Under the pieces are notes generated by a model. That model was not told the DNA's origin, did no database searches, and saw only the letters and a program-made list of their open reading frames with translations. This document shows, piece by piece, positions 1,279 through 52,243 of a stretch of 64,000 bases of DNA (position 1 is its first letter; each line of letters opens with the position of its first letter). Made by a program: the position numbers and the translations under genes. This DNA comes from Clostridia bacterium. GTDB taxonomy: Bacteria > Bacillota > Clostridia > Oscillospirales > CAG-272. The stretch covers positions 12,194 to 76,193 of the forward strand of contig JAFVTV010000038.1 of assembly GCA_017502975.1 (NCBI GenBank). Reading direction: 5' to 3'.

Positions 1279-3246
<1,968 letters not shown>

Positions 3247-3263
3247 TGAAAGGAGATAAAAAT

Positions 3264-5789
3264 ATGGAATACAAGAACGAAAATATTGAATTTCCCAATC
3301 AGATCATCGAAGATGTAGAGATGTCGGGGCGTGTCAAGCAGGCGTTTATCGAGTATGCAATGTCTGTTATCGTTGCCAGAGCCCTGCCCGACGTGCGCGA
3401 CGGTATGAAGCCCGGTCAGCGCCGCATCATGTATGCTATGTACGAGGATCACCTCACCTCGGACAAGCCCTTCTTTAAATCGGCTACCACCGTTGGTAAC
3501 GTGCTGGGTCGCTATCACCCCCACGGTGATGCCGCCGTTTACGGCACCATGGTGCGTATGGCGCAGGATTTCTCCTTGCGCTATCCGCTGGTTGAGGGTC
3601 AGGGTAACTTTGGCTCGATTGACGGCGATAGCCCCGCTGCTTACCGTTATACCGAGGCGCGCCTTGCCAAGATCTCAAACGAGCTGATGGCTAACCTTGA
3701 AAAGGAGGTCGTTCCCTTTGGCCCGAACTTTGATAACCGCCGCCGCGAGCCTCTGGTGCTTCCCTCGCGCTTTCCGAACCTCTTAGTCAACGGCTCGGTC
3801 GGCATTGCGGTTGGTATGGCGACCAATATCCCGCCCCATAACATGGGCGAGGTCATTGATGCAACCATTTATCGCATGGAAAACCCTGAGGCGACCGTTG
3901 AGGAGCTGATGCAGTACATCAAGGGTCCCGACTTCCCCACCGCCGCTACCTGCTACGGTGTGCAGGGTATCATCGATGCCTACCGCACGGGTAAGGGACG
4001 CGTGATGGTGCGTGCCAAGTGTGAGGTTGATGAGGAGAACCATTGCATCAAGGTAACCGAAATTCCCTACCAGGTCAACAAATCCGCGCTCGTTATGTCG
4101 ATTGCGGAACTTGTAAAGGATAAGAGAATTGAAGGCATTACCGATATCAAGGACGTTTCCTCTGACCGTAACGGTATTTGTATTTTGATCCCCTACCGTC
4201 GCGACGTCAACGGTCAGGTCATTCTCAATCAGCTCTACAAATACACCCAGCTGCAGGATACCTGCTCGATCAATATGCTCGCCCTTGTCGGCGGTGAGCC
4301 TCGCGTGCTTTCCCTGCCGCAGATCCTTGACTACTATATCGCGCACCAGATGGACGTGATCACCCGCCGCACGAAGTTTGACCTTGATAAGGCAGAGGCG
4401 CGCGCGCATATCCTTGAGGGCTATAAGATCGCAGGCGATCATATTGATGACGTTGTGGCGCTGATCCGTGCCGCTGCCTCGGTTGCCGACGCCAAGGAAA
4501 AGCTGATTGCAACTTACACCCTTACCGAAACGCAGGCGCAGGCGATCGTTGAAATGACGCTTGGTAAGCTGACAGGCCTTGAGCGACAAAAAATCGATGA
4601 TGAGCTTGAAAAGCTGCATCAGATGATCAAGGAGTTCCGTGCCGTGCTTGCCGATGAGCAAAAGGTTAAGGAGATCATCAAGGATGAGATGCTGGAGATC
4701 CGCCGTAAATACGCAGATGCACGCCGCACCGAGATCGTGGAGGCGACCGATGACATCGACCTTGAGGATCTCATTGAGCGTCACGATTGCGTGATCACCC
4801 TCACCCATGCCGGCTATATCAAGCGCCAGCCTGCCGATACCTATGCAGTACAGCACAAGGGCGGCAAGGGTATTATCGGTATGACCACCAAGGAAGAGGA
4901 CTTTATCGAAAAACTGATGGTGGTACACAGCCACGATTACCTCATGCTCTTTACCAATACGGGCAAGGTGTTTATGCGTAAGGCATATCAAATTCCCGAG
5001 GCATCGCGCACCGCAAAGGGCACCAATATCGTAAATGTTGTGGAAACCGTGCAGGGCGAGACCATTACCGCCATGATCGCCGTTTCCGAGTTTGATGACG
5101 AGCACTTCCTCACCATGGTAACAAGGAACGGTGTCATTAAGCGTACGCGTTTGAAGGAATACGAATACCAACGCAAGGGCGGTAAGATCGCGCTTTCGCT
5201 CGATGAGGGCGATGAGCTGGTGTTTGTGATGCACAGCAAGGGCGAAAACGACGTGCTGCTTGCAACGCACGAGGGTAGTGCCGCACGCTTTACCGAAAGC
5301 GCGGTAAGACCCCTTGGCAGAACGGCGCGCGGCGTGCGCGGCGTTAAGCTCCGTGAGGGTGACTATGTTGTAGGTGCCGTGATCGTTGACGACACCAAGC
5401 AGCTGATTACCGTAACCGAAAACGGATACGGAAAACGCACATCGTTTGAGGACTTCCGCCAGAAGGGCAGAGGAGGCCTTGGTGTTACCTGCCACAACCT
5501 GACCGAAAAGACAGGCTTGCTTGCAGGCATTGCCGCTGTGACCGATGAGGATGATCTGATGATGATCACCAACCTTGGTACGATCATTCGTACCCCCGTG
5601 GCGCAGATCAATACCTACTCCCGTACCGCCGCAGGCGTTATCGTCATGCGTCTTGGCGACGGTCAGACACTGGCAGGCTTCTCAAAGGTAGCCCATGAGG
5701 AGCAGGAGAATGAGGAGAATGCCCCCGAGGTACAGGTTGAAGTAACCGAGGCGCAGGCTCCCACTGCCGAGCAGCCCGAAAACAACTAA
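3264..5789 (+). CDS. gyrA: DNA gyrase subunit A
   Basis: Contains the QRDR-like region ([19 protein letters not shown]), the active-site [10 protein letters not shown] and C-terminal beta-pinwheel repeats. I prefer the ATG at 3264 (RBS aaaggaga) over the listed 3246. Confidence 0.96.
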
Positions 5790-5951: not shown

Positions 5952-6917
5952 ATGAAAAAACGTCTGATAGCCGTTATCGTGGCAATCGCGTTGATACTTG
6001 TATCACTGGGGGTGTTTTTGGTGGTGAGGCATATCAAAAACAATCGCCCGCCCGAGCTTGAGAGCCTAAGACCTCGCGTGATCGCACTCATTGACGCTTC
6101 GCATGAAATCAACGAGATCTTTTGGGGCGAGGGGCTTTCCACCCACCCGCGTGTATACCGCGAATACTATACACGTGTGCCGTTTTATTTGCAAGAGGAC
6201 GGCGATCACTATACCTTCAGCGACGCGCAGACCGACTACAAGCTCTATTATTATACCTTTACCGATGCAGAGGTTGGTGACATTCTTGCGTATCAGTATT
6301 GTCTGAAGGTCGCTGACGGCGTGTACGTTGACGTAGAAAAGGGTGGCGCCCTTACCATTGCCGATAAGATCAAATACCGCTACGCAAGAGTTTCGAGCGA
6401 GTGGGAGGAGGGCGTAATTTTTGAAGCGGGTGGAAAATACTATATCCCACTGCCCTCGTATGTCGAAAAGGAAGCGGATTTTTATTATACTTCCCAAGAT
6501 CCCGAGTATTACGACTATGTGCGTGATGATGCGGGGTATCTCACCACTGCCGCCATTAAGAGCAAGGCAGAGGGCGTTTATGCCAATGATTTTCTCTCCT
6601 CCGTGTATGAAAGTCTCTTTACGGGTATAACGATATCCGACAGCCAAAACGGCACGCTTTATGCGCGCTATATCGATCATACCGACACTGAGGGCAACGG
6701 CTATTTGATGAAGTCCAATATATGGACAGCGATACAGGTTTCGCGCGTTTATCTTTATGACACCATGCGTATGAGCGAGAAGCGCAAGAGTAACGCCACC
6801 GACGTTTTTATTGATATCGACAGCTACGTGCCCGGTAAGGAGAGCGAAACGCAGACCATTACCCTTTCCTTTACCCTGCAGGACGGCGCGTGGTATCTTA
6901 ATTCTGCAACCTATTAA
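5952..6917 (+). CDS. Hypothetical membrane-anchored exported protein
   Basis: 321-aa ORF with an N-terminal hydrophobic anchor (LIAVIVAIALILVSLGVFLVV) and a Tyr/Asp-rich ectodomain. I recognise no family. Confidence 0.6.
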   Translation: MKKRLIAVIVAIALILVSLGVFLVVRHIKNNRPPELESLRPRVIALIDASHEINEIFWGEGLSTHPRVYREYYTRVPFYLQEDGDHYTFSDAQTDYKLYYYTFTDAEVGDILAYQYCLKVADGVYVDVEKGGALTIADKIKYRYARVSSEWEEGVIFEAGGKYYIPLPSYVEKEADFYYTSQDPEYYDYVRDDAGYLTTAAIKSKAEGVYANDFLSSVYESLFTGITISDSQNGTLYARYIDHTDTEGNGYLMKSNIWTAIQVSRVYLYDTMRMSEKRKSNATDVFIDIDSYVPGKESETQTITLSFTLQDGAWYLNSATY

Positions 6918-6985
6918 GGGGCAGACCCCTTCCTGCATTTTGCTGCGGAAGGCTGTATCCCCATGCCCCCTGTTCGTATATTTGT

Positions 6986-7010
6986 GTAGGGGCGATTCAC
7001 GAATCGCCCC
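6986..7010 (+). repeat. REP-like hairpin, class iii (GTAGGGGCGATTCACGAATCGCCCC)
   Basis: GTAG head followed by a 9-10 bp perfect stem, located in intergenic DNA. Related copies lie at 26421-26442 and 26853-26876. Confidence 0.7.
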
Positions 7011-7118
7011 TGCGAGAAACTGTATCATTGTGCACCTTGTTCACACTGTATTATTCCCTTTCCCAAGATTTTTGGGAGTGTGGGAGTGAATGTTTTTTGC
7101 CGTGGGGCAAAAAACAAA

Positions 7119-7156
7119 GAGGGAGAGAGGACTTTTGCAAAAGTCCTCTCTCCCTC
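7119..7156 (-). terminator. 38-nt perfect palindrome; terminator of the acyl-CoA ligase gene
   Basis: GAGGGAGAGAGGACTTTTG|CAAAAGTCCTCTCTCCCTC. On the minus strand it is followed by TTGTTTTTTGCCCC and sits about 20 nt after the stop at 7178. Confidence 0.75.
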
Positions 7157-7177
7157 TCTTATTTTCTCCCTACTCAA

Positions 7178-8955: not shown

Positions 8956-8985
8956 ATTATACCCCAAAAACAGCACATCTGTCAA
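8956..8985 (-). promoter_or_regulatory. Sigma-A-type promoter for the ligase gene
   Basis: On the minus strand: TTGACA, 18 nt spacer, TATAAT. Confidence 0.5.
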
Positions 8986-9108
8986 GTAATGGAAGCGTTA
9001 CAAGAAAAAGGTGTTTGCAATATGGTAAAATGTGGAATATAAACGGGTGGAAAAGGGCCTCTTTCTCTAAAAACCATTTTGCACAGGCGCATTATTTGCA
9101 CAATCTCT

Positions 9109-9234
9109 GTAGGGGGCGGCGCCTCGACGCCCCGCCAGCTACGATATGTAAAACATGTACACATATTGTAGGGACAGGCGCCCTCGACTGTTCGGGATCT
9201 TGCGCCAATGGGGCGTCGAGGCGTCACCCCGTAC
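9109..9234. repeat. Cluster of three REP-like hairpins (BIME-like)
   Basis: 9109-9135 is GTAGGGGGCGGCGCCTCGACGCCCCGC (class ii, + orientation). 9168-9194 is GTAGGGACAGGCGCCCTCGACTGTTCG (class i, +). 9210-9234 is the reverse complement of GTACGGGGTGACGCCTCGACGCCCC (class ii-like, -). Confidence 0.75.
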
Positions 9235-9365
9235 AAAGAAATTTTCAATTCTTTAGACAAGGTGTTAGCGCAAGGGAAAATAAAATATCGCCCCACCGCG
9301 GCACACTCCAAACGGAGCACGCTTTGGTCGGGCGATATCTTTATAAAGCTTGGTTTTTACGGTGC

Positions 9366-9869
9366 TCAAAGCAGCGCGTCTATCATCGAAAGCACAAAGG
9401 GGATCAGCTTGATGAGCAGGATCGCAAGACCGATCGAAAGGATAACGGTGAGCATGAATTGCAACGGGCCGTTTCCCTTTTTATCAAAGCGCCCCTCGGC
9501 GCGGTATTTGAGTGCCTCGGGAATATAGTAGCGTGTGTCGTTCCCTTCCCCCTCTACCTTTTGAACGGTTTTTTGCAGCACGAGGTTGTGGCGCAATTCA
9601 AAGCCAAGTAAGCTTTTTTTGCTAAGATCGAGCTCCGCAAGCGTTTTTGCCGCGTCGGGCGATAGCGCCCCGGCGCCAAGCAACGCACGCACAAGGCTGC
9701 CGGGAACACTACGCTGATAGAGCGTGTAAAGAGAGGAAAGCACAATGCCAACGCAAATGCCCAGTATAAGCAGCGTAACCGTTGCGGCATCGCTTTGGTC
9801 AAAGGTAATGTTTTCGTATTCCTTTGCCTCAAGGGTAAACAGAGAGACAAGGGAGAGCGGGGTGCGCAT
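9366..9869 (-). CDS. Hypothetical integral membrane protein
   Basis: About 167-aa ORF with two or three hydrophobic segments. Its ATG overlaps the serS stop (TGATG), which suggests translational coupling. Confidence 0.55.
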   Translation of the reverse strand: MRTPLSLVSLFTLEAKEYENITFDQSDAATVTLLILGICVGIVLSSLYTLYQRSVPGSLVRALLGAGALSPDAAKTLAELDLSKKSLLGFELRHNLVLQKTVQKVEGEGNDTRYYIPEALKYRAEGRFDKKGNGPLQFMLTVILSIGLAILLIKLIPFVLSMIDALL

Positions 9870-11152
9870 CAAAGCGTCTCGGGCTTGATCACATCACAGC
9901 CCATGTAGGTGCGCAGTGCCTCGGGAACGGTCACGGAGCCGTCCTCGTTTTGATAGTTCTCAAGAATAGCCGCAACCGTACGGCCGACTGCTACGCCCGA
10001 GCCGTTTAGGGTATGCACCAAGCGGGGCTTATCCTTGGGCGTTTCACGGAAGCGGATGTTTGCGCGGCGTGCTTGGTAGTCCTCAAAGTCAGAGCAGGAG
10101 GAGATCTCCACATAACGGCCGTAAGAGGGCATGTATACCTCAATATCATAGGTCATGGCGCTGGAGAAGCCAAGGTCGCCCGAGGAAAGACGCACAACGC
10201 GGTAAGGAAGGCCAAGGCCCTGCAAAACGCGCTCGGCATCGTTTGTCAACTTTTCAAGCTCCTCATACGAGGTCTCGGGGCTGGTAAATTTTACCAATTC
10301 GACCTTGTTGAACTGATGCTGACGGATAAGACCTCTTGTATCACGTCCTGCAGACCCCGCCTCGGCACGGAAGCAAGCGGAATATGCGCAGAAGGAAAGG
10401 GGCAGCTTTGCGCCGTCAAGGATATCGTCGCGATACATGTTGGTAACGGGCACCTCTGCGGTGGGGATGAGGAAGAAATCGTTGTTTGCTACGCGGAAAG
10501 CGTCCTCCTCAAACTTCGGCAGCTGACCCGTGCCGCGCATCGAGTCGCGGTTTACCATGTAGGGCGGGAAAATTTCGGTGTAGCCGTGGTCGGTGTGGGT
10601 GTCAAGGAAATAGTTGATTATGGCGCGCTCCAAGCGAGAGCCCATGCCACGGTAAAAGTGGAAGCGCGCTCCCGTAACCTTTGCGGCGGTGTCGGGGTCG
10701 AGAATACCAAGTTCCTTGCCAAGATCCCAGTGTGCCTTGGGCTCAAAGCCAAAGGCTTTGGGCTCGCCCCAGCGGCGCATCTCCACATTGTCGGTGTCAT
10801 CCTTACCTACGGGCACCTTTTCGTTTGGGGTGTTGGGAATCGAAAGCAGAATGGTGGAGATCTCGCTGTCAATGGCGGAAATCTTTACTTCATCAGCCTT
10901 TACCGTTTCGGAGAGTTTCTTCATTTCCGCAAAAATGGGTGCAACGTCCTTCCCTTCCTTCTTCAGGGCGGGAATTTGCTTGGAAATTCTGTTTTGCTCC
11001 GCCTTTTTCTGCTCGGTATCGGCAATCAGCGCGCGGCGCTCCACGTCAAGCGTGAGCAAGCGGTCGATATCCGCGCTGTAATCCTTCTGACGGCTTGCAA
11101 GACGCTCCTTGACAAGCTCGGGGTTTTCTTTAATAAACTTAATGTCTAACAT
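9869..11152 (-). CDS. serS: Seryl-tRNA synthetase
   Basis: The N-terminal coiled-coil arm begins [16 protein letters not shown] and class II aaRS motifs are present. I chose the start at 11152 because the listed 11203 start would overlap parB. Confidence 0.95.
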
Positions 11153-13182: not shown

Positions 13183-13411
13183 TGTTTCACGTGAAACATT
13201 TGCAAAAGCACAACCAAATTTGCCGCTATTTTGATATGGCGCAAAACTCGTTGCTTAGCGTTTCACGTGAAACATTTTTTTAAGCATCCTCGGCACCGGC
13301 AAGAAAGGATTGCGTTTTTGTTTCACGTGAAACAACGCCCTGTTGTGTGTAAAAGGTGTTTCACGTGAAACAATGCTTAATTTATGCGTGAAAAGTGTTT
13401 CACGTGAAACA
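13183..13411. promoter_or_regulatory. Array of five parS centromere sites
   Basis: The 16-mer TGTTTCACGTGAAACA occurs at 13183-13198, 13319-13334, 13357-13372 and 13396-13411. CGTTTCACGTGAAACA occurs at 13259-13274. Both fit the Firmicute parS consensus TGTTNCACGTGAAACA. Confidence 0.9.
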
Positions 13412-13413
13412 AA

Positions 13414-14406
13414 TCACCCCTTTTTGGGAATGCGAATAAGAATGTGCGCAAAATCCTCGTCCTCTTCCCTGCGGTATTCTGCGCTGACGCCCGTCTTTTC
13501 AAAGATACCCAGCGTGCGCTCAATAGAATTGTATAGTGGCTTTAGGTCGCGCAGGGCAAACTTGCGCGGCGTAACCCCCACCCCTTGCACGTTAAGCGCT
13601 TGCTTTTGCGGCAATAAGGGCTCGTTTTCGGCGCTTTTTTGCTGTTTTGGGGTAAAAAACACGTCCATTTCCTGTTTAAGCGTGGGTGTTGGGTCAAGCC
13701 CCCCATCTTTTTTGTCGTTTACAAGAGCCGCTTTGTTGCCCAAATGCAGATCCACCAGTGCCTCTGTACTTGCTACGTTGCGGTTCTCCCGCTGGGCGGC
13801 GGCAATCACCTCAAGGCGCGTTGCCGGGTCTGTGATCCGCAAAAAAGCGCGCGCGTGACGCTCAGAAAGTCCGCCCGCCACAATGATACGGCGCTCCTCG
13901 GGGGTCAGTTTTAGCAAACGAAGTTTGTTTGCTACGGCAGATTGTGAGAGTCCCATCTTTCTTGCAATCTCTTCTTGCGTCATATAATACTCCTGCATAA
14001 GGCGAGAAAATGCCTCTGCAAGGGCAAAAAAGTGCAGATTTTCGCTCCTTAACTGCAAAATTGCCGCCATTTGCAGGCATTTTGCGTCATTTGGCGGTAG
14101 TACAAGGCAGGGGAGCTTGTCCATACCTGCAAGGGCGGCGGCGCGAAAGCGGCGCTCGCCGTCTATCAACTCATAGATGGGAAAGCCGTCCTTCTGCGTG
14201 GATAATTTTACGCAGATCGGCTCTAAAATGCCGTATTTTCTAATGGATGCGGCAAGTCTAATGATGGCATTTTGCTCATTTTTGGGGTTTTGCGGTGCGC
14301 TTTGCGCCAAAATTTGCTCTGCGGCAAGAAAAATAGGCGTTTCAACCGCATTTCCCCTGCCAAAATGCATTGCCGAAGCGGTCGTGCTGCTATATAAACT
14401 CTTCAT
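13414..14406 (-). CDS. ParB/Noc-family paralog (nucleoid-occlusion-like)
   Basis: 330 aa with a ParB box (YELIDGERRFRAAALAG) and an HTH (MTQEEIARKMGLSQSAVANKLRLL). It sits between rsmG and parA, as noc does in Bacillus. Strong RBS ggaggt. The C-terminal ~130 aa are not ParB-like by eye. Confidence 0.75.
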   Translation of the reverse strand: MKSLYSSTTASAMHFGRGNAVETPIFLAAEQILAQSAPQNPKNEQNAIIRLAASIRKYGILEPICVKLSTQKDGFPIYELIDGERRFRAAALAGMDKLPCLVLPPNDAKCLQMAAILQLRSENLHFFALAEAFSRLMQEYYMTQEEIARKMGLSQSAVANKLRLLKLTPEERRIIVAGGLSERHARAFLRITDPATRLEVIAAAQRENRNVASTEALVDLHLGNKAALVNDKKDGGLDPTPTLKQEMDVFFTPKQQKSAENEPLLPQKQALNVQGVGVTPRKFALRDLKPLYNSIERTLGIFEKTGVSAEYRREEDEDFAHILIRIPKKG

Positions 14407-26420: not shown

Positions 26421-26483
26421 GTGCTTCGTGAAGCGCCCCTACGGTACGAAAAAGGAGCGGGGCGTCGAGGCGCCGCCCCCTAC
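26421..26483 (-). repeat. Two REP-like hairpins (class iii and class ii), minus orientation
   Basis: 26421-26442 is the reverse complement of GTAGGGGCGCTTCACGAAGCAC. 26457-26483 is the exact reverse complement of the 27-mer at 9109-9135. Confidence 0.75.
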
Positions 26484-26509
26484 TTACATAGCAAACACGG
26501 AGGCGTGAA

Positions 26510-26809
26510 ATGAAGCTTGAAAAAATCAGATTCTGCCGATGCCCAAAATGCCATAAACACGGTATACCGGCATTCAAAAAAATAGGTCACCGCTACAACC
26601 CCGAAGTGCAATGTAAATATTGCAGTGTTAAATTTTCAGTAAATTTTGCACTATCGCTCATTATAAAAATATTTATTCCTATATTTTGGGGTGCTATTGG
26701 ATTGCTTTTCACCACTTATATCCTGGAAATACCCTTTCCTTTTTGGTGCGCTTTGGCAATCATAAGCCTGTTCGTTTTTGAATATTTTTGCCCAATGGAA
26801 GAGAGGTAA
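26510..26809 (+). CDS. Hypothetical zinc-ribbon membrane protein (AT-rich islet gene 2)
   Basis: 99 aa with CxxC pairs (CRCPKC ... CKYC) followed by two TM segments. Composition is AT-rich. Confidence 0.5.
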   Translation: MKLEKIRFCRCPKCHKHGIPAFKKIGHRYNPEVQCKYCSVKFSVNFALSLIIKIFIPIFWGAIGLLFTTYILEIPFPFWCALAIISLFVFEYFCPMEER

Positions 26810-26852
26810 AAGTTTGTTATCGAGGTCTTTTTCGCTTTGTTGGCATACTCTT

Positions 26853-26876
26853 GTAGGGGCGTTTCAAGAAACGCCC
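26853..26876 (+). repeat. REP-like hairpin, class iii (GTAGGGGCGTTTCAAGAAACGCCC)
   Basis: GTAG head plus an 8-9 bp stem, followed by GTAC. Confidence 0.7.
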
Positions 26877-26885
26877 GTACGGTAA

Positions 26886-26924
26886 AAAAAGGAGAGAGAA
26901 CATTTTATGTTCTCTCTCCTTTTT
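26886..26924. terminator. Bidirectional terminator (probable ancestral aspS terminator)
   Basis: AAAAAGGAGAGAGAACA-tttta-TGTTCTCTCTCCTTTTT, with A/T runs on both sides. It lies about 55 nt downstream of the orphan aspS 3' end. Confidence 0.7.
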
Positions 26925-26978
26925 AATCATGCTTTGCGTTAATGCAAGCTGCGGTTGGGTTTAAAAATTGTGCACCGT

Positions 26979-27017
26979 TTATGCTTCTTCGACCACGGCG
27001 ATGCTGAGATCGGCAAG
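26979..27017 (-). pseudogene. Orphan fragment of an aspS 3' end (12 codons plus stop)
   Basis: The minus strand reads LADLSIAVVEEA*. The live aspS C-terminus is LADLAIAVIDESEK*. My count is 9 of 12 aa and 26 of 36 nt identical. Homology stops exactly where a truncated REP head (GTAGGGA) begins. Confidence 0.65.
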
Positions 27018-27056
27018 TCCCTACAAAAAACAACAGGAATCAAATTCACTCCAAAA

Positions 27057-27083
27057 CGGACAGTCGGGGACGCCTGTCCCTAC
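27057..27083 (-). repeat. REP-like hairpin, class i
   Basis: Reverse complement of GTAGGGACAGGCGTCCCCGACTGTCCG, one substitution from the copies inside the RAYT-like gene. A truncated head copy lies at 27018-27024. Confidence 0.75.
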
Positions 27084-32140: not shown

Positions 32141-33787
32141 ATGCAAATGAAAGGCTTTTTATCGGTTATCGCATCTCTGCTGTTAGCGCTTGTGCTTTGC
32201 TTGTGCTTTACAGCGTGTGGGGAAGAACAGGAGCACGTTCACTCGTTTTCCGCATGGAACACAACAACATCGCCCACCTGTACCACTGAGGGCAGGCAAA
32301 CCAGAACCTGCAGCTCGTGCGATACCTCGGAATACATACCGATTCCGGCGTTGGGGCACAAAAAGGTGATCGACAATGCCGTTGCTGCCACCTGCTTGGC
32401 AGAAGGCAAGACAGAGGGCAGCCATTGCAGTGTTTGTAATATTGTAATCAAGCCGCAAAATACAATTGCCGCGCTTGGGCATACTGCCGTAACAGATGCC
32501 GCGGTTGCACCCACCTGTACTGCACAGGGTAAGACAGAGGGCTCGCACTGCAGTGCTTGTGACGCTATACTTGTTGAGCAGACTGCCATAGAGCCCTTGG
32601 GGCATCAGTACGATGCGGGAGTGGTGGTAACGTCTGCAAGCTGTGTTGCGGCAGGCACAAAGAAATACACCTGCACTGTTGCTACGTGCAAGCATACTTA
32701 TAATGCGCCCTACGACATGGCAACCTTTACCGCAACCGAAATATACGATAAGGCGATTAAATTTGTTGCCGAGATTACGATTTACGACAAAACCGGTGAA
32801 GAAGTAGGCGTTGGCGCGGGCTTTGTATACAGCCGTGACGGAAGAATTGTTACCAATTATCATGTCATTGAGGATGCATACAGCGCAACCGTTACCATAA
32901 ACAAAAAAACCTATGCCGTTTTATCGGTTCTTGCGTTTGATGTCGATATAGATCTGGCGGTTTTGAAGATAAACGCCACGGGCTTAACCGTTGCCAATGT
33001 GTGCAAAAAACCCGTTAAGGTGGGGCAAACGGTTTGGGCGATCGGTTCACCCATGGGGCTGACCAACACGCTTTCGCAGGGTATGATTACCTATGCAGAC
33101 AGAGAATTGTACGACGTATCCTACGTTCAGCACGATGCATCCATTGCGGGCGGCAATTCGGGCGGACCGCTGATCAATGTGCACGGAGAAGTGATTGGCA
33201 TAAACACATTTTATTTTGCGGATTCGCAAAATCTGAATTTTGCTGTTTTTGCAGGCGAGCTCGACAACCTGTACTACGGAACACCGATATCGCTGGCCGA
33301 TCTGTATGAGCTTAATCATGACCCATACAATATTTTGACCAACTGGCTGACTGAAAACTATACCGATTATTCATCCTATGAGATTTGTTATGATGAGATA
33401 CTGGAAGACGCTTGGTTTTCCATCGGAATGGATCTGCAGACCGGGGATCTCTACATTGATGCGCTGTGGGATCTCGGGGATGGGGTAGAGTGCTATGTGC
33501 TGCTGAACCTTTCCTATGACCCCTCGCAATATGTCTATTATGCATGTTTATCTTACGATGGATACCAAAACATAGTGATCGGTCGCATCAACGCCGCCAC
33601 CTTTAACGAAAATACCGTCTTGACCCCGATCACCTATGAGGGAAATTATTGGGATGAGGAGTTGGTTTTGGAACTGTATTGCGCGGGGATTATCGATCTG
33701 TTGTATTGGTTTGATTGGGTAAGCTTTGAGAACGGTATTGGTGTGACGCCGACGGATTTCGGCTTTGCGGCGCTTGAGTGGGTATAA
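32141..33787 (+). CDS. Secreted trypsin-like serine protease (S1C/HtrA-like core) with four N-terminal Cys/His modules
   Basis: Signal/lipoprotein-like N-terminus. Four ~41-aa modules lie at 32234-32716. The protease core shows TNYHVI (His), DLAVLK (Asp) and GNSGGPL (Ser). The C-terminal ~170 aa are unassigned. Confidence 0.8.
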   Translation: MQMKGFLSVIASLLLALVLCLCFTACGEEQEHVHSFSAWNTTTSPTCTTEGRQTRTCSSCDTSEYIPIPALGHKKVIDNAVAATCLAEGKTEGSHCSVCNIVIKPQNTIAALGHTAVTDAAVAPTCTAQGKTEGSHCSACDAILVEQTAIEPLGHQYDAGVVVTSASCVAAGTKKYTCTVATCKHTYNAPYDMATFTATEIYDKAIKFVAEITIYDKTGEEVGVGAGFVYSRDGRIVTNYHVIEDAYSATVTINKKTYAVLSVLAFDVDIDLAVLKINATGLTVANVCKKPVKVGQTVWAIGSPMGLTNTLSQGMITYADRELYDVSYVQHDASIAGGNSGGPLINVHGEVIGINTFYFADSQNLNFAVFAGELDNLYYGTPISLADLYELNHDPYNILTNWLTENYTDYSSYEICYDEILEDAWFSIGMDLQTGDLYIDALWDLGDGVECYVLLNLSYDPSQYVYYACLSYDGYQNIVIGRINAATFNENTVLTPITYEGNYWDEELVLELYCAGIIDLLYWFDWVSFENGIGVTPTDFGFAALEWV

Positions 33788-36859: not shown

Positions 36860-36863
36860 TGTA

Positions 36864-36900
36864 AAAACACCCCAAAACGCAGCACGTTTTGGGGTGTTTT
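36864..36900 (+). terminator. 37-nt hairpin, copy A
   Basis: AAAACACCCCAAAACG-CAGCA-CGTTTTGGGGTGTTTT (16-bp perfect stem, T-run included), 5 nt after the permease stop. Confidence 0.85.
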
Positions 36901-37078
36901 GCTTTTATTTATCTTTTATACAGTGTTGCTTGACGATAAAAATTATAGGCATTGTCGGTTTTATCAATAGGAAGCATTCCTGCGTGCCTGTGAATTGAAA
37001 AACAACACCGTTTGTGGTATAATAAAGTAACACGCCTTGTTTGAAACAAAATTTCTCAAGCAAATAAAAGGAGCAACC

Positions 37079-37732
37079 ATGAAAACGATACTAATCATCG
37101 ACGACGATATCCATATTGGAGATATGCTGACAGAGGTGTTGGAGCGTGAGGGCTATGGTGTTTTGCGCGCGTATTCGGGCACGGAAGCGTTATTGCTGCT
37201 TTCACAGAAAACGCCCGATCTTGTGCTGCTTGACCTGATGCTCCCCGGGCTTTCGGGTGAGGAGGTCTTGCCCAAAATTAAGAACATTCCCGTCATTGTG
37301 GTAAGTGCCAAAATAGACGTGCAGGACAAGGTGGATCTTTTGCTTGGCGGGGCGGCGGATTACGTCACAAAGCCCTTTGATACCAAGGAATTGCTTGCAA
37401 GAATTTCGGTGGCGCTACGAAACACATCGGCGCAAGTGCCACTTTTGCATTACGATGCGATTACCTTGAACACGGCAAGCTATGCCGTGTTTGTTGACGG
37501 TGCCGAGGTCAAGCTGACGCGCACGGAGTTTGCCATCCTCAAATATCTGATGCAAAACAGTGCACAGGCACTTTCCAAGTCGCAATTACTTGACCGTATT
37601 GCCCTTGATACACCCGATTGTACCGAAGGCTCGCTAAAAATTCATGTTAGCAATCTGCGAAAAAAACTGCGTGACGTGTCGGGGAAAGATTATATTGAAG
37701 CTGTTTGGGGCATCGGTTTTAAGTTGAAATAA
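37079..37732 (+). CDS. OmpR-family response regulator
   Basis: Receiver domain (ILIIDDD, LVLLDLMLPG) plus a winged-helix output (VWGIGFKL). I chose the start at 37079 (RBS aaaggag). Confidence 0.9.
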   Translation: MKTILIIDDDIHIGDMLTEVLEREGYGVLRAYSGTEALLLLSQKTPDLVLLDLMLPGLSGEEVLPKIKNIPVIVVSAKIDVQDKVDLLLGGAADYVTKPFDTKELLARISVALRNTSAQVPLLHYDAITLNTASYAVFVDGAEVKLTRTEFAILKYLMQNSAQALSKSQLLDRIALDTPDCTEGSLKIHVSNLRKKLRDVSGKDYIEAVWGIGFKLK

Positions 37733-37843
37733 GGCAAAAAACCGCAAAATGAAAATCTTTACGAAATCTTAACCCTTTTCTTTACCGCTACCTTAACCGC
37801 TTTGCGGTAAGATATCGGCAACATCCAAAAGGAGGAGTTCGAG

Positions 37844-38758
37844 ATGGAATACGTACTCACAACACAAAACTTATCCAAATCCTACCGCAAATTTCAGGCG
37901 CTCGATAATTTCACCATGCGCGTGCCAAAGGGCGCGATCTATGGCTTTGTCGGCAAGAACGGCGCGGGTAAGACCACGCTCATTCGCCTTGTTTGCGGTC
38001 TGCAAGCGCCCACGGCTGGCTCTTACAGCATCTACGGCATCGACTATAAGGACAAGAGCATTTCAAAGGCGCGCCGCCGCATGGGCGCGGTGGTGGAAAC
38101 GCCCGCGATTTATATGGATATGACCGCCACGGAAAACTTGAAGCAGCAGTATCTTCTGCTCGGACTTCCTTCCTATGAGGGGATCGACGAGCTGCTTTCT
38201 CTTGTGGGGCTTGCGAACACAGGAAAGAAAAAGGCGCGCAACTTCTCGCTTGGTATGAAGCAGCGCCTTGGCATCGCCATCGCGCTTGCGGGCGATCCCG
38301 ATTTTCTCGTGTTGGACGAGCCCGTGAACGGCCTCGATCCACAGGGCATCATCGAGATCCGCGAGCTGATCCTAAAGCTCAACCGCGAGCGACAGATCAC
38401 CGTGCTGATCTCCAGCCATATTCTTGACGAGCTTTCCCGCCTTGCCACGCACTACGGCTTTATTGACAAGGGTAGAATGGTTAAGGAAATGAGCGCCGCG
38501 GAGCTGGAGGCGGCTTGCCGCAAATGTATGCGCGTGGAGGTCAGCAACACCGCCGCGCTGTCGCGCGTGCTGGACGGTATGGGCGTGGAATACAAGATCC
38601 TTACCGACACCACCGCCGATATTTACGCAAAGCTTAATATTTCGGAGCTGACACGCGCGCTCGATAAGAGCGCCTGCGAGCTGCGCGCGATCACCGAGCA
38701 CGATGAATCCCTTGAAAGCTACTTTGTGGGGCTTGTGGGAGGTGGCGAGCGTGAGTAA
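37844..38758 (+). CDS. ABC transporter ATP-binding protein (antimicrobial-peptide/lantibiotic-immunity type)
   Basis: Walker A GKNGAGKTT, signature FSLGMKQRL, Walker B FLVLDEP, and a ~80-aa C-terminal extension. Confidence 0.88.
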   Translation: MEYVLTTQNLSKSYRKFQALDNFTMRVPKGAIYGFVGKNGAGKTTLIRLVCGLQAPTAGSYSIYGIDYKDKSISKARRRMGAVVETPAIYMDMTATENLKQQYLLLGLPSYEGIDELLSLVGLANTGKKKARNFSLGMKQRLGIAIALAGDPDFLVLDEPVNGLDPQGIIEIRELILKLNRERQITVLISSHILDELSRLATHYGFIDKGRMVKEMSAAELEAACRKCMRVEVSNTAALSRVLDGMGVEYKILTDTTADIYAKLNISELTRALDKSACELRAITEHDESLESYFVGLVGGGERE

Positions 38759-39590
38759 TCTTTTGCGCGCAGGATTTGTCCGTTATCTCAAAAATCCACT
38801 TGCAGTCATTGCCGCCGTTGCCTCGCTTGTGATAGGGCTTCTTGGCGGTCGCAATGCAGTCTACACCATCGATGATGTGTATTTAATCGCGTTGTTCATT
38901 GCATTTGCCGCATTTATTTCGCTACTCGTCGGGCGCGAGCACGGGGAAGGCGGCTTTCGCAATAAGGCGATCGCGGGTTACACGAAGGGACAGATCTTTT
39001 TCTCGGAATGGCTGCTGCACACGGTGTTTTGCCTGTGCCTGCTGCTGCTCTTTCTTGTCGGCTTTGCACCACTCGCGCACGAGGTGCTTTCCCCCGTGCC
39101 CGCGAGGATGCTTGCTTTGATTGCTTTGTGTTTTGTATGTATGACGGTAGCTGTTGTGACTCTGCTTTGCGTGCTTTCCATGCTGGTTAGCTCTCGCGCC
39201 GTGTCGGCGATCCTTTCGGTGCTGTTGGTGATCGGGCTGTTGTTTGCTTCTTATAAGATTGAAGAAGCGCTTTCCACACCGCAATATTATTACATAAGTC
39301 ACTATGATGAGCAAAACGAGCTTGTATGGGAAGAACAAAAGGAAAGTCCGCTTTATGTGGACGGCGCGGCGCGCACGTTTCTTACGCATCTGAATTATAC
39401 GATCCCCTTGGGGCAAAGCGAGCCGTTGATCCAGTGCATTGGTGTATGGAATTACGACGTGTCATGGATCGATGAGCATTCTTGTTCGCATCTGAAGATC
39501 GTGAAATTTTTTCCGCTTTATTCCTTGGGGCTAACGGTAACCATCGGTGGCATCGGTTATGCGATCTTCCGCCGCCGTGACCTGAGATAG
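38751..39590 (+). CDS. ABC-2-type permease subunit 1
   Basis: About six TM segments. A GTG start overlaps the ATPase stop (GTGAGTAA). The listed 38703 start would lie inside the ATPase gene. Confidence 0.7.
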   Translation: MSNLLRAGFVRYLKNPLAVIAAVASLVIGLLGGRNAVYTIDDVYLIALFIAFAAFISLLVGREHGEGGFRNKAIAGYTKGQIFFSEWLLHTVFCLCLLLLFLVGFAPLAHEVLSPVPARMLALIALCFVCMTVAVVTLLCVLSMLVSSRAVSAILSVLLVIGLLFASYKIEEALSTPQYYYISHYDEQNELVWEEQKESPLYVDGAARTFLTHLNYTIPLGQSEPLIQCIGVWNYDVSWIDEHSCSHLKIVKFFPLYSLGLTVTIGGIGYAIFRRRDLR

Positions 39591-39593
39591 GGG

Positions 39594-40448
39594 GTGGACG
39601 GCGTGAAAAATCTGCTTTCTGCCACCTTTCGGCGGCTTTTTAAGGGGAAGTTGTTTTGGATCGGCATGCTTGCCATGGGCGGTTTTGGCGCCGTTGCAAC
39701 GATCGCACGGGCACGCGATGCCTACATTCTGCAGGGAATGGGCTACGACACCCCCGACGGGCTTTTGTTTATCGGTCTCACTTATTTTCTCATCACCGTG
39801 GCGGCGTTCGATAGCCTTTTCATCGGTGCCGAGCACGCGGACGGCACGTGGCGTAATAAATTGATCGTGGGGCAAGGGAAGGTGCAGATCTATCTCACCT
39901 ACCTGATCGTCACAACCGCAGCCACGCTCCTGATGCACCTTGTCTATATCGGCGTGGTGTTGGGGCTTTCCGCATCGCTTCTGAATCCTTTTTTGACGCC
40001 GATTAGAGTGAACGTGGTCTTCTTTTTCTGCTCCCTTGCCACCGTGGTGGCAATGAATGCTCTGATGGTCACGCTTTGTATGCTCGTGCAAAACAGGGCG
40101 TTTGTGGCGGTTGGCGCAATGCTGCTTGCCATTGGCTTGATGATGGGCGGTATGACGATCTATCAAATGCTCTGCGCACCTGAATTTTTAAGCGGTCCGC
40201 CCTCGACCGTAAACGGTGTGCTGATGCCATCCCCCGAGCCCATGCCCAACCCCAAATATCTCACGGGCGCGAAGCGCGCATTCTTCCAATTTTTGCACGA
40301 TTTTCTGCCCGGTGGTCAGGCGCTGACCATTGGCACGACAGGCGAGCTGCCTGCAAATGTGTGGCGTTTGCCCGTGTTGTCTCTGTCGCTCGCCCTGCTT
40401 TCCACCCTTGGCGGCGCGTGGGGCTTTTGCCGCCGTGATTTAAAATAA
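39594..40448 (+). CDS. ABC-2-type permease subunit 2
   Basis: 284 aa with about six TM segments and the same layout as subunit 1. GTG start. Confidence 0.7.
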   Translation: MDGVKNLLSATFRRLFKGKLFWIGMLAMGGFGAVATIARARDAYILQGMGYDTPDGLLFIGLTYFLITVAAFDSLFIGAEHADGTWRNKLIVGQGKVQIYLTYLIVTTAATLLMHLVYIGVVLGLSASLLNPFLTPIRVNVVFFFCSLATVVAMNALMVTLCMLVQNRAFVAVGAMLLAIGLMMGGMTIYQMLCAPEFLSGPPSTVNGVLMPSPEPMPNPKYLTGAKRAFFQFLHDFLPGGQALTIGTTGELPANVWRLPVLSLSLALLSTLGGAWGFCRRDLK

Positions 40449-40469
40449 TATCAAAAAGGAGGTGTGCGT

Positions 40470-41348
40470 ATGGTTGCGTTATGGATCGCGGTGGGGGTGT
40501 TGTCCCTTGCCGTACTCTTGCTTGTGTGCAAGGTTTTCTCCATGCAAAAGGCGGCAAGAGAGATCGCGGCAGGTTTTGCCGAGCATCTGCAAAGCGATAC
40601 CAATACGCTGATCTGCGTATCCACCAGGGATCGACATATACGCGCACTTGCCGTTGCCATTAACCGAGAGCTGCGCACGCTACGCGAGATGCGGCACCGC
40701 TATCAAAACGGCGACAAGGAGCTGAAAAGCGCCGTCACCAATATCTCGCACGATCTGCGCACACCGCTCACCGCCATTTGCGGGTATCTTGACCTTTTAG
40801 AAGCGGAGGAAAAATCCGAGCAGACCGCCCGTTATATCGCGCAAATTGCAAACCGGATCGAGGTTTTGAAGTCGCTGACCGAGGAGCTGTTTCGCTTTTC
40901 GGTGATCTCTGCCGAGCCTGCCCTCGCGCCTGAGCGCTTGAACGTGTGCCGCGTGCTGGAGGATACGCTCATTTCCTTTTACGGCGCGCTGGAGGGAAAG
41001 GGCATAAAACCACAGATTTCTTTGCCTGATTGTGAGGTGTGGCGCACCTTGGATGCTTCTGCGCTTTCTCGGATTTTTGGCAACATCGTGAGCAATGCGG
41101 TAAAATATTCCGACGGAGATTTTAGTGTCTGTATGAGCGAGGACGGCCGCATCGTGTTTACCAATACGGCGCACACCTTGTCTGCGGTGGACGTGGAAAA
41201 GCTGTTTGACCGCTTCTATACGGTCAATTCCGCGAGAAGCTCCACAGGCCTCGGGCTTTCGATCGCCAAGATCCTGGTCGAGCGGATGGGTGGGTGTCTG
41301 TCCGCCCAATATAAGCATGGGCAGCTTAACATTATTTGTACTTTCTAA
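40470..41348 (+). CDS. Sensor histidine kinase (single N-terminal TM segment, intramembrane-sensing type)
   Basis: H-box ISHDLRTPLT, N-box NIVSNAVKYS, G-box GLGLSIAK. The ATG at 40470 lies 6 nt after aaggagg. Confidence 0.88.
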   Translation: MVALWIAVGVLSLAVLLLVCKVFSMQKAAREIAAGFAEHLQSDTNTLICVSTRDRHIRALAVAINRELRTLREMRHRYQNGDKELKSAVTNISHDLRTPLTAICGYLDLLEAEEKSEQTARYIAQIANRIEVLKSLTEELFRFSVISAEPALAPERLNVCRVLEDTLISFYGALEGKGIKPQISLPDCEVWRTLDASALSRIFGNIVSNAVKYSDGDFSVCMSEDGRIVFTNTAHTLSAVDVEKLFDRFYTVNSARSSTGLGLSIAKILVERMGGCLSAQYKHGQLNIICTF

Positions 41349-41399
41349 AAAATTATGATCTGTCGGGTCATGTGCAAAAAAGCACCACACCGTAACCGA

Positions 41400-41436
41400 A
41401 AAACACCCCAAAACGTGCTACGTTTTGGGGTGTTTT
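41400..41436. terminator. 37-nt hairpin, copy B (inverted relative to copy A)
   Basis: AAAACACCCCAAAACG-TGCTA-CGTTTTGGGGTGTTTT. The arms are identical to 36864-36900 and the loop is the reverse complement of copy A with one change. It lies between convergent genes. Confidence 0.85.
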
Positions 41437-41440
41437 CTTG

Positions 41441-42142
41441 TTATTTGCGCTTGCGCGCAGGCACGAGGGAGAGTGCGAGAAGCGCCTGCGAGGGCACGTA
41501 AAAGATCCATGCGAGGTTGAAGCCCGGGTGCGCTAAGTGGTAGATGAAGCCGCCCTTGGCGAGGGGAAGATATCCTTCAATGAGGGAAAGCCCCACAAAA
41601 ACATCACAGCAGGCAAAGAGCAAAAGCCCCGCGGCAAACAGGGGCGGCTTTTCGCCGGCAAGAAAGGCGAAGACCACATTTAAAAGCAGATTGGCGAAGT
41701 AAAACATCGAAACAAGCGCCACCGCATCGGCATTTTTGCCGAGCGCCAAAAGTGTGATAGCGAGTGTGAGAATTGGCACACCAACGCGCAAAAGTGCGTG
41801 CACGGTGCGGCGTTTTTCGTTTGTATCGGCAAAATAAATGCGCGCAAAATAGCAAAGCTGCGTTACTGAAAAAAAGAGCATGGCAGCAAGCTTTTCCTCA
41901 GCGCCCCGCAGCACCAAAAAGTAATCGGCACAAACGGTAGCGAGGAGTGCTGCTTGTGTGAAATAGTAGCACTTCGTGTGGGAGAAAAGCAAAAACGCAA
42001 ACAGGCAGGCAAGCACAACAGCCGCATAGGAGCACAAAGTAGCACCTCTGCCGGGCAGTACTTGGAGCAGGATGCCGAGCGTGAGCTCCGCTATTAAAAA
42101 CGCGCCACACAAGAGCTTGTCGAGGTGTTTATTCTTTCGCAT
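41441..42142 (-). CDS. YhhN-like (lysoplasmalogenase family) membrane protein
   Basis: 233 aa with about 7-8 TM segments. The family assignment rests on size and topology only. Confidence 0.45.
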   Translation of the reverse strand: MRKNKHLDKLLCGAFLIAELTLGILLQVLPGRGATLCSYAAVVLACLFAFLLFSHTKCYYFTQAALLATVCADYFLVLRGAEEKLAAMLFFSVTQLCYFARIYFADTNEKRRTVHALLRVGVPILTLAITLLALGKNADAVALVSMFYFANLLLNVVFAFLAGEKPPLFAAGLLLFACCDVFVGLSLIEGYLPLAKGGFIYHLAHPGFNLAWIFYVPSQALLALSLVPARKRK

Positions 42143-51577: not shown

Positions 51578-52243
51578 ATGTTTTTATTTGGCAGAAGAAA
51601 AAAGCGCCTTGAAAGGGAGCGCCTTGCCGCAGAGCAGGCAGCAGCCGCCGAGCAGGCAAGAATTGCCGAGGAAATGAAAAAGGCGGAGGAAATGCGCCAA
51701 GCCGAGCTTGCGCAAAAGGCAGAGGCTGCAAGAAAGGCAGCCGAGATCGCCGCTGCCGAGGAGGCAGCCGCCGCGGAGCAGGCAGAAGCGGCTGAGCAAG
51801 CGCCTGCTGAGGTAGCAGAAGCACCCGCCGAGGAAATTAGCGAGGAGGTTGCAAAAGCAAACGGAAAGTTTGAGATCAAGCGCGCGAGTGACGGCAGATA
51901 CATGTTTAACGTGCGCGCGGGGAATACGCAGGTAATTGCAAGCTCGCAGATGTACAGCTCGATGGCATCCTGCAAAAACGGCATTGCCAGCGTTGGGGTA
52001 AATGCGCCCTTGGCGGCCATTGAGGATCAGACCCTGCAAACCATCAATGTGGAAAAGTGCCCCAAGTTCCAGATCTATTTTGACAAGGCAGGGCAGTACC
52101 GCTTCAATCTGATTGCCAAAAACGGCAATAACATTCTTTCCTGCACGCAGGGCTACCGTCAAAAGTCAAGCTGCAAAAACGGCATCAAGAGTGTGATCGC
52201 AAATGCAAGCGCCCCCACTGAGATTTTGAAGACCGAGAAATAA
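51578..52243 (+). CDS. YegP/DUF1508 tandem-domain protein with an Ala/Glu-rich N-terminal region
   Basis: Two DUF1508-like repeats (FEIKRASDGRYMFNVRAGNTQVIASSQMYSSMASCKNGIASV and FQIYFDKAGQYRFNLIAKNGNNILSCTQGYRQKSSCKNGIKSV) follow an ~85-aa AAEQA-type low-complexity segment. Confidence 0.8.
   Translation: MFLFGRRKKRLERERLAAEQAAAAEQARIAEEMKKAEEMRQAELAQKAEAARKAAEIAAAEEAAAAEQAEAAEQAPAEVAEAPAEEISEEVAKANGKFEIKRASDGRYMFNVRAGNTQVIASSQMYSSMASCKNGIASVGVNAPLAAIEDQTLQTINVEKCPKFQIYFDKAGQYRFNLIAKNGNNILSCTQGYRQKSSCKNGIKSVIANASAPTEILKTEK

Follow-up and report, generated by a model that had tools for sequence, protein, structure and literature searches.

The stretch of DNA analysed here, referred to below as the window, comprises 64,000 nt from the genome of a Clostridia bacterium (GenBank assembly GCA_017502975.1, contig JAFVTV010000038.1). 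It contains ten copies of a short palindromic repeat, and one gene (52361-52897, + strand; 178 amino acids) coding for a Y1 HUH protein that resembles TnpA-REP and other REP-associated tyrosine transposases (RAYTs), where REP stands for repetitive extragenic palindrome. The repeat unit, 22-27 nt long across the window copies, consists of a GTAGGG head followed by a GC-rich hairpin, and the copies fall into three classes with different stems. Eight copies are intergenic, three of them clustered at 9109-9234; the other two lie inside the enzyme gene, in frame. The GTAGGG-headed hairpins are a genuine dispersed REP family. We estimate at roughly three in four the probability that the window holds such a family together with a RAYT-like enzyme that carries its cognate class i REP as an in-frame, inverted pair within its own open reading frame (ORF).

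Both in-ORF copies belong to class i. Arm 1 (52484-52510, + strand) and arm 2 (52666-52692, - strand) are perfect reverse complements of each other (27/27), with GTAG heads facing outward, and enclose a 155-nt stretch coding for the HUH motif (H-I-H, 52616-52624, within MPNHIHLL). The putative catalytic tyrosine is found further downstream, at 52841-52843, within RYIYENP, in a Y-x-x-x-N-P context. Arm 1 precedes the proline codon of the HUH motif by 126 nt and encodes VGTGVLDCP (residues 42-50), which in the AlphaFold (AF2) model of the enzyme makes the loop of a β-hairpin with strands at residues 40-43 and 52-55. Arm 2, when read on the + strand, encodes GQSRTPVPT. In the same model these residues (103-111) form a loop that joins the HUH strand to the helix after it and is predicted with low confidence (pLDDT 57-65). 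The latter peptide is an insertion relative to the structure of E. coli TnpA-REP (PDB 4ER8), and directly precedes the helix aligned with αC; in TnpA-REP, αC and αB form the surface that binds the REP stem (Messing et al., PMC3479197). No REPs flank the enzyme gene in the window, so that the bordering palindromes of a classical REPtron are not seen here. The initial annotation of this DNA, made from the sequence alone, had placed the two in-ORF copies correctly and had set them aside as an exception. Their location stands; their treatment as an exception does not, because the in-ORF inverted pair is the central conserved feature of the system.

The only family matched by the enzyme is NCBIfam NF047646, REP_Tyr_transpos ("REP-associated tyrosine transposase"), with E = 5e-18. 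The best solved relative found with the family profile is E. coli TnpA-REP (4ER8, E = 3.6e-13), and the same structure is the best match to the AF2 model (pLDDT 86) in a Foldseek search (4er8_A, E = 1.6e-7, TM 0.57/0.61), with TnpA proteins of IS200/IS605 elements also matching the fold significantly but ranked behind it. Sequence and predicted fold agree in identifying the gene as RAYT-like, as the initial annotation had proposed, and the REP/RAYT reading of the repeats and the enzyme is supported by sequence comparison and structural modelling. There is one RAYT-like gene in the whole window.

The in-ORF pair is kept at fixed positions in most relatives of this gene. We performed an exhaustive search of representative proteins, which gave 17,311 relatives at E <= 1e-3, and a one-genome-per-species scan with a diverse alignment (A1), which gave 80 related loci, labelled L001-L080. 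Both peptides are retained in the 120 homologue clusters nearest to this gene (64-88% identity; Clostridia and Oscillospiraceae metagenome-assembled genomes, or MAGs), and in 21 of the 120 exactly these two segments have undergone in-frame tandem multiplication, e.g., GQSRTPVSD repeated three times as a 27-nt unit. Distant members have other peptide pairs at the same two positions, and each pair represents two translations of one GTAGGG hairpin: VGDGVLDVP and GTSRTPSPT, VGGGVLDAP and GASRTPPPT, VGADSISAR and RADMESAPT, VGEGLAPP and GGASPSPT, and also VGAIHESP and AIRESPLR, which correspond to class iii of the window. Of the 80 related genes, 56, all with intact reading frames, have one GTAGGG hairpin in + orientation that precedes the proline codon of PNHIH by about 126 nt and another in - orientation 58-85 nt past this codon. 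The same two positions are filled in proteins that are 30-60% identical, and the offset of -126 nt is fixed. Long-range inverted repeats with a score of at least 20 were found in 47 of 83 RAYT-like regions, as compared to 2 of 451 control ORFs of 150-235 amino acids taken from the same loci.

The two arms of one gene evolve in concert: the median number of arm mismatches is 1 in 24 within a gene and 11 in 24 between genes. In L001 and L008, two loci detected through protein similarity (55-58% identity), the arms differ from those of the window by only 1-2 of 27 nt. The in-ORF arms are either 24 or 27 nt long, and the 26-nt variants that were seen, which follow the 27-nt design minus one loop base, are all outside genes (9109-9135 and 26457-26483 in the window; 2863 in L043; 4984 in L002). 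Lengths in multiples of three are as expected if the reading frame filters what persists.

Other arrangements occur within the same protein family, including the classical flanking one. The second gene of L001 has no in-ORF REP and has an inverted pair, heads outward, just outside the ORF; the gene of L075, likewise lacking in-ORF REPs, is bordered by alternating REP arrays. In L063 and L072 the first REP is within the ORF and the second one follows the stop codon, and L015, L033, L037, L040 and L046 have in-ORF as well as flanking copies. Extra elements of a foreign class may be found at the same spots, such as a class iii unit in L011. Three loci from distant lineages, L080 (Anaerolineae, 10256-10284), L069 (Ignavibacteria, 10277-10352) and L073 (Algoriphagus, 10307-10334), have only a double-headed REP after the HUH motif and no upstream in-ORF arm; this REP is a perfect palindrome GTAGGG...CCCTAC, sometimes in tandem, and encodes, e.g., VGAGLKPAPT. 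Essentially no neighbouring genes are shared between the window and the 80 loci, and synteny is therefore uninformative on vertical inheritance beyond the species.

The ten window copies can be described as variations on a common plan, with a GTAG head in nine of them and GTAC in one. Class i, GTAGGGACAGGCGYCCYCGACTGTYCG, has an outer stem of 6 bp, a G.A mismatch and an inner stem of 2 bp. In addition to the in-ORF arms, it is represented by GTAGGGACAGGCGCCCTCGACTGTTCG at 9168-9194 (+), which is 2 nt off the in-ORF copies, and by a copy at 27057-27083 (-), just past the terminator of the aspartyl-tRNA synthetase gene. Class ii, GTAGGGGGCGGCGCCTCGACGCCCCGC, follows the design of class i with another stem and a loop shorter by one base. 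Its copy at 9109-9135 (+) folds at -10.3 kcal/mol and is matched in 27 of 27 positions, on the opposite strand, by the copy at 26457-26483 (-); a degenerate, GTAC-headed copy is found at 9210-9234 (-). Class iii, GTAGGGGCG-N-TTCACGAA-N'-CGCCC(C), has a stem of 9-10 bp and a loop of 4 nt. One of its three copies is GTAGGGGCGATTCACGAATCGCCCC at 6986-7010 (+), which folds at -11.4 kcal/mol with z = -7; the copy at 26853-26880 (+) is double-headed, with GTAG at the 5' end and GTAC on the other strand, and the one at 26421-26442 (-) is degenerate, with one C.A mismatch. At one stem position the copies at 6986, 26853 and 26421 have A:T, T:A and C:G, respectively. When folded as single-stranded DNA (ssDNA), seven of the eight copies tested have energies of -5 to -11 kcal/mol, and the degenerate copy at 26421 folds weakly, at -4.4 kcal/mol.

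Chance is excluded as the origin of these repeats, since GTAGGGGCG occurs three times in the window against 0.37 expected from dinucleotide shuffles, GTAGGG is seen 27 times where 13.05 would be expected (0/100 shuffles), and exact 27-mers recur. A covariance model was built from 43 related arms and used to search the whole window with filters off. It recovers the ten known copies, six of them at 35-44 bits (43.9 for arm 1, 43.3 for 27057-27083, 38.3 for 9168-9194, and 34.9 each for 9109-9135 and 26457-26483); the class iii copies match weakly, as does the degenerate copy of class ii, and no further convincing copies were found in the 64 kb by this unfiltered search. A scan of the window for GTAG followed by any hairpin was unspecific, with 17 matches against 9.8 in Markov simulations; the signal is carried by the GTAGGG head together with the GC stem.

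Pairing in the stem is maintained by compensatory change. Among the 43 distinct 27-nt arms, seven of nine stem pairs vary in both partners, and at three stem pairs all four Watson-Crick combinations occur; G1-G6 of the head are invariant. The covariation score is 0.551, as compared to 0.122 in shuffled alignments (0/500) and at most 0.117 in controls with slid partners, a significance that, being based on shuffles, is inflated by the relatedness of the sequences. The arms had passed a pairing filter, so that the percentage of paired positions is not independent evidence and the diversity of pair types is. The folding strand was examined in 268 distinct elements under symmetric ascertainment, with no more than two non-Watson-Crick pairs, of whichever kind, being admitted. 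Stems on the GTAG strand have 71 G.T or T.G pairs and 13 A.C or C.A pairs; the large excess of G.T indicates that the GTAG strand is the one selected to fold. In the in-ORF pair, the folding strand coincides with the sense strand in arm 1 and with the antisense strand in arm 2, an arrangement more consistent with ssDNA substrates, one per strand, than with an mRNA element.

The 126 bp at 9109-9234 that were flagged initially are a three-unit REP cluster, similar to REPINs (REP doublets forming hairpins) and to bacterial interspersed mosaic elements (BIMEs). Segment 9104-9133 is 87% complementary to 9210-9239, from which it is separated by 76 nt. The region 9095-9250 folds at -41.7 kcal/mol (z = -6.7), and in this fold the two class ii copies, as the left and right arms of the cluster, pair into an inverted doublet with heads outward that encloses the class i copy. 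With this, most of what the initial annotation had said of the window is borne out: the ten copies on their respective strands, the head-plus-hairpin anatomy, the exact reverse complementarity of the two class ii copies, the single complementary change among class iii copies (to which the C.A mismatch of the 26421 copy has to be added), covariation that persists in the larger alignment, the intergenic location outside the RAYT-like gene, and the BIME-like nature of the cluster. A covariance model, as it had suggested building, returned the same ten copies in the window.

The cluster lies past the terminator of the gene at 9366-9872 (-) and upstream of the promoter of a gene for an AMP-binding enzyme. 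That promoter (8956-8985, - strand), located just downstream of the cluster, is a perfect sigma-70 consensus (TTGACA, 18 nt, TATAAT; 12/12). A 112-aa ORF, 8982-9320 (-), runs straight across the cluster and is almost certainly spurious. The copy at 6986 is found between convergent genes, flanked by their terminators (6916-6931 and 7116-7159). A near-perfect palindrome of 36+36 nt at 7102-7173, with T or A runs on both sides, is a bidirectional terminator between the convergent genes; it ends in CCCTAC and yet is not a REP. The copies at 26421 and 26457 are between two genes on the + strand, and the copy at 26853 has a stop codon on one side and a terminator-like hairpin on the other. Spacing around 26421-27083 is identical in three assemblies of near-identical strains.

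The window has several repeats of other kinds. A palindrome, GTTTCACGTGAAACA, occurs three times at 13184-13384, in an intergenic region upstream of the gene 13414-14406 (-), with spacing of 76 and 98 nt; this trio looks like operator sites for a dimeric regulator. Near-identical terminator-like hairpins, AAAAACACCCCAAAACG...CGTTTTGGGGTGTTTT, at 36863-36910 and 41393-41446 (85-91% alike), bracket the gene block 37037-41348. Two 60-nt direct repeats at 32378-32560, 123 nt apart and 75% identical, are located within the ORF 32141-33787 and suggest an internal protein repeat. Imperfect 18-nt coding repeats, GCCGCMGAGCAGGCAGC, at 51626-51801, specify an Ala/Glu/Gln-rich segment in the N-terminal part of the DUF1508 protein encoded beside the RAYT-like gene.

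Dispersed copies accompany the related genes in other genomes. There are 164 GTAGGG hairpins in 1.24 Mb of DNA flanking the related loci, and solo GTAG-headed hairpins of 24-27 nt occur about once per 6-8 kb. Of the 164 flank elements, 113 (69%) are outside ORFs, though ORFs cover 87% of this DNA (p = 3e-60); the count of elements within ORFs is inflated, since false "hypothetical proteins" arise from REP clusters. Of the convergent intergenic regions, 14% hold an element, as compared to 5.4% of tandem and 4.8% of divergent regions (chi-square p = 5e-4). In metagenomes, the class i 26-mer has at least 148 exact copies in at least 120 stretches, and at least 128 of these copies are outside RAYT-like genes, many of them at contig ends.

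The enzyme gene is specifically associated with one REP class: in the flanks, agreement with the class of the local gene is found for 24 REPs, as compared to 2.9 +/- 1.9 after permutation (0/2000). This association is a genomic one, read from sequence. In L071, both in-ORF arms are identical to the first 24 of the 25 bases of the class iii copy at 6986 in the window; class iii is also found in L045, in L011 and in a paralogue in L005, where a class-i-like gene adjoins the class iii gene. Class ii is the same as arm 1 of L009 less one loop base. RAYT-like paralogues, which may adjoin while having in-ORF classes of their own, are found within 20 kb of each other in L014 (three genes) and L023 (two genes), and many genomes have several classes, often mixed within clusters (L014, L053, L070). 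Two further expectations of the initial annotation, namely intergenic and 3'-end bias and the matching of each stem class to a different paralogue, thus hold in relatives, the former in the extragenic excess and the preference for convergent regions, the latter in the in-ORF pair of the L071 subfamily and in the two genes side by side in L005. L034, a Synergistaceae MAG, has about 20 GTAGGG hairpins of three classes within 20 kb (2478-5516 and 10691-10999) and a RAYT-like gene without an in-ORF REP, so that REP density and in-ORF architecture can be uncoupled.

These observations may be explained as follows. The GTAGGG repeats would be substrate-type sequences of RAYT/TnpA-REP-like Y1 HUH nucleases. 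By analogy with E. coli TnpA-REP (PMC3479197, PMC3333891), the enzyme would recognize the GTAG head in a base-specific manner, together with the foot of the hairpin, on ssDNA such as the lagging-strand template; it would then cleave nearby by means of its tyrosine and rejoin the DNA, and REPs would spread and be homogenized in the process. The anatomy of the gene suggests what the inverted pair could add: each strand would have one GTAG-headed copy, whichever the direction of replication, and the placement within the ORF would tie the enzyme and its recognition site inseparably. Resident in the gene, the in-ORF copies could be the masters, or seeds, of their class, with selection retaining only in-frame events in insertion-tolerant loops. 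For classes ii and iii, the enzymes would be paralogues whose genes lie beyond the window. Tandem multiplications and occasional foreign-class arms indicate that the in-ORF spots are active.

A stronger version of this proposal, which we regard as doubtful, is that the in-ORF pair is a functional coupling device, by which the site and the specificity of the enzyme are inherited, and perhaps tuned, together, and that the in-ORF copies are the masters of the family. Since the recognition site is written in the frame of the enzyme, a change of REP class also alters two surface loops, and these REP-coded loops adjoin the helices that in TnpA-REP bind the REP stem. If this were true, one gene of 0.5 kb could found and maintain a new REP family in a naive genome.

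Several points count against the reading of the system as REPs with a RAYT-like enzyme that carries its cognate pair. The NF047646 score of the protein, 65.3 bits, is under the equivalog cut-off of 80, and no Pfam family matches it at E <= 0.01. Arms belong to differing classes in L005, L009, L011, L014 and L079, and some relatives have a single in-ORF arm or none; matched in-ORF pairs are therefore not obligatory. No insertion (presence/absence) polymorphism was seen among the near-identical strains around 26421-27083. The comparison of codons at positions with the same amino acid, where 116 of 121 in the arms and 384 of 706 elsewhere in the gene are identical to those of the window, is biased, as the loci had been picked for carrying the class i 26-mer in one arm, and is only suggestive; the small arm differences of L001 and L008, given above, are support of a less biased kind. 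The pairing filter and the inflated covariation significance, mentioned above, belong to the same side of the balance.

The main rival is neutral hitch-hiking, i.e., that REPs insert at ssDNA exposed near the enzyme, that only in-frame insertions in two tolerant loops survive, and that the resident copies have no role as site, seed or regulator. We consider this possible, if on the whole unlikely. The location of both peptides in loops, one of them with low pLDDT, the tandem multiplications and foreign-class extras at the same spots (the class iii unit of L011), the genes with mismatched arms or none, and the known cases of REPs within other protein genes (PMC3733652) all speak in its favour. 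Hitch-hiking accounts in this way for the expansions and the exceptions; it does not account for the fixed positions, which are the same two across proteins of 30-60% identity with the offset at -126 nt, or for the homogeneity of arms, nearly identical within a gene and yet divergent between genes. The scarcity of such pairs in other ORFs of similar size (2/451) and the avoidance of ORFs by 69% of flank elements also disagree with it.

Two other explanations dispense with the proposed relationship between the repeats and the enzyme. The hairpins could be mainly RNA elements, acting as stabilizers of mRNA 3' ends, attenuators or terminators, with only an incidental link to the Y1 enzyme. E. coli REPs do stabilize mRNA (cited in PMC3733652), and the preference for convergent regions and 3' ends, as well as the tolerance of G.T pairs on the GTAG strand, would suit such a role. 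The role of terminator is ruled out, since a T tract is absent from all ten copies and separate intrinsic terminators stand alongside; several copies are past these terminators. With the GTAG strand of in-ORF arm 2 being antisense to the mRNA, with a significant class-specific association with the enzyme gene, and with no Rfam family reaching its gathering threshold anywhere in the window, and only a chance match to mir-358 (E = 0.21) over the 9109-9234 cluster, we find RNA elements an improbable explanation overall. It is very improbable that the units are decayed ends of IS200/IS605-type elements and the gene that of a regular IS200 transposase. This idea agrees with the Y1 HUH fold of the protein and with the significant fold matches to IS200/IS605 TnpAs, but TnpA-REP is the best match by sequence as well as by fold, and the in-ORF hairpins are inverted, whereas the left and right ends of IS200/IS605 elements share one strand. 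Moreover, the RAYT-like gene is single in the window and has housekeeping neighbours (DUF1508 protein, RNase M5-like protein, BacA and RarA), with no transposase domain in the adjoining genes; the identical protein is found in the same gene context in eight contigs from different samples, including GCA_045602625.1; and solo hairpins are dispersed at the density given above.

The system has features in common with several known ones. The GTAG superfamily of REPs (Di Nocera 2013, PMC3733652) has several traits that are seen here: a short hairpin unit (20-40 bp in the superfamily), an unpaired head, sub-families related by complementary changes, and a mainly extragenic location, with convergent and unidirectional gene pairs being favoured in the superfamily. 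High copy number throughout the genome is another trait of the superfamily, for which the metagenomic copies of class i are a proxy here. E. coli REPs and BIMEs with their TnpA-REP (PMC2817692, PMC3333891, PMC3479197) likewise have a 5' GTAG head, an imperfect GC-rich hairpin, and scattered intergenic copies that often form inverted doublets or clusters, and the E. coli REPtron combines a Y1 HUH enzyme, whose structure 4ER8 is the closest solved relative here, with a gene-associated inverted REP pair. The pair described here differs in being within the ORF and translated, whereas REPtrons have been described as coding sequences with bordering palindromes (PMC8266576). Also different from E. 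coli are the GTAGGG head, the gut Clostridia host, the many classes per genome, and the protein itself, which is under the NCBIfam equivalog cut-off. As in the REPIN-RAYT systems of Pseudomonas (PMC3116915, PMC5581495), an inverted doublet folds into a larger hairpin (9104-9239), a chromosomal RAYT has a fixed housekeeping context, and RAYTs and repeats are paired by class; in Pseudomonas, however, REPINs flank the RAYT, while here the 155-nt spacer of the doublet encodes the HUH core, two or three paralogues may be found within 20 kb (L005, L014), and local densities are lower.

In-frame palindromic inserts that add peptides at tolerant positions are known from the Rickettsia palindromic elements and from intragenic REPs (PMC3733652). 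Those are scattered over unrelated genes, many of them involved in repair or replication; here, the host gene is that of the presumed enzyme of the repeat itself, and the copies occupy two family-wide fixed sites, are inverted, and are kept alike. The TnpAs of IS200/IS605 elements (IS608, ISDra2) offer an analogy in Y1 HUH chemistry, in ssDNA hairpin recognition, and in a guide-like 5' tetranucleotide; they differ in that here no transposon ends surround the gene, hairpins are inverted, and hundreds of solo hairpins are dispersed without the gene.

The literature covered (Nunvar 2010, Ton-Hoang 2012, Messing 2012, Di Nocera 2013, Bertels 2017, Quentin 2018, Corneloup 2021, and the preprint of Bertels and Rainey, "Ancient Darwinian replicators"), in which few subscription journals were represented, presents RAYT genes as having REPs or TIRs at their borders and names no Firmicutes as hosts of REPs; it has no account of a REP located within a RAYT ORF, or of a REP/RAYT system from Firmicutes, and a search for the repeat sequences as text matched only unrelated primers. 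The initial annotation had held that an explicit account of such systems in Clostridia is lacking, and none was found, with the qualification that Group 1 RAYTs are known to occur in Clostridia (Bertels 2017, PMC5581495). REPs, RAYTs, REPINs and intragenic REPs are already known; the REP pair inside the frame of a RAYT is apparently new.

REP/RAYT systems are hereby extended to abundant gut Clostridia (Acutalibacteraceae, Oscillospiraceae, Ruminococcus). This has some practical consequences: the repeats probably fragment assemblies of such genomes, REP clusters generate spurious "hypothetical proteins" such as the ORF 8982-9320, and the odd low-complexity peptides that recur in "transposase" annotations (VGxGVLDxP, GxSRTPxPT, VGAIHESP, AIRESPLQ, VGAGLKPAPT) find an explanation. 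For the questions of how REPs originate, spread and remain matched to their RAYTs, which concern E. coli and Pseudomonas as well, fusion of the site and the enzyme in one reading frame amounts to a natural experiment, in which arms, loops and dispersed copies can be traced together over thousands of homologues, and co-evolution, class switching and seeding of REP families become testable.

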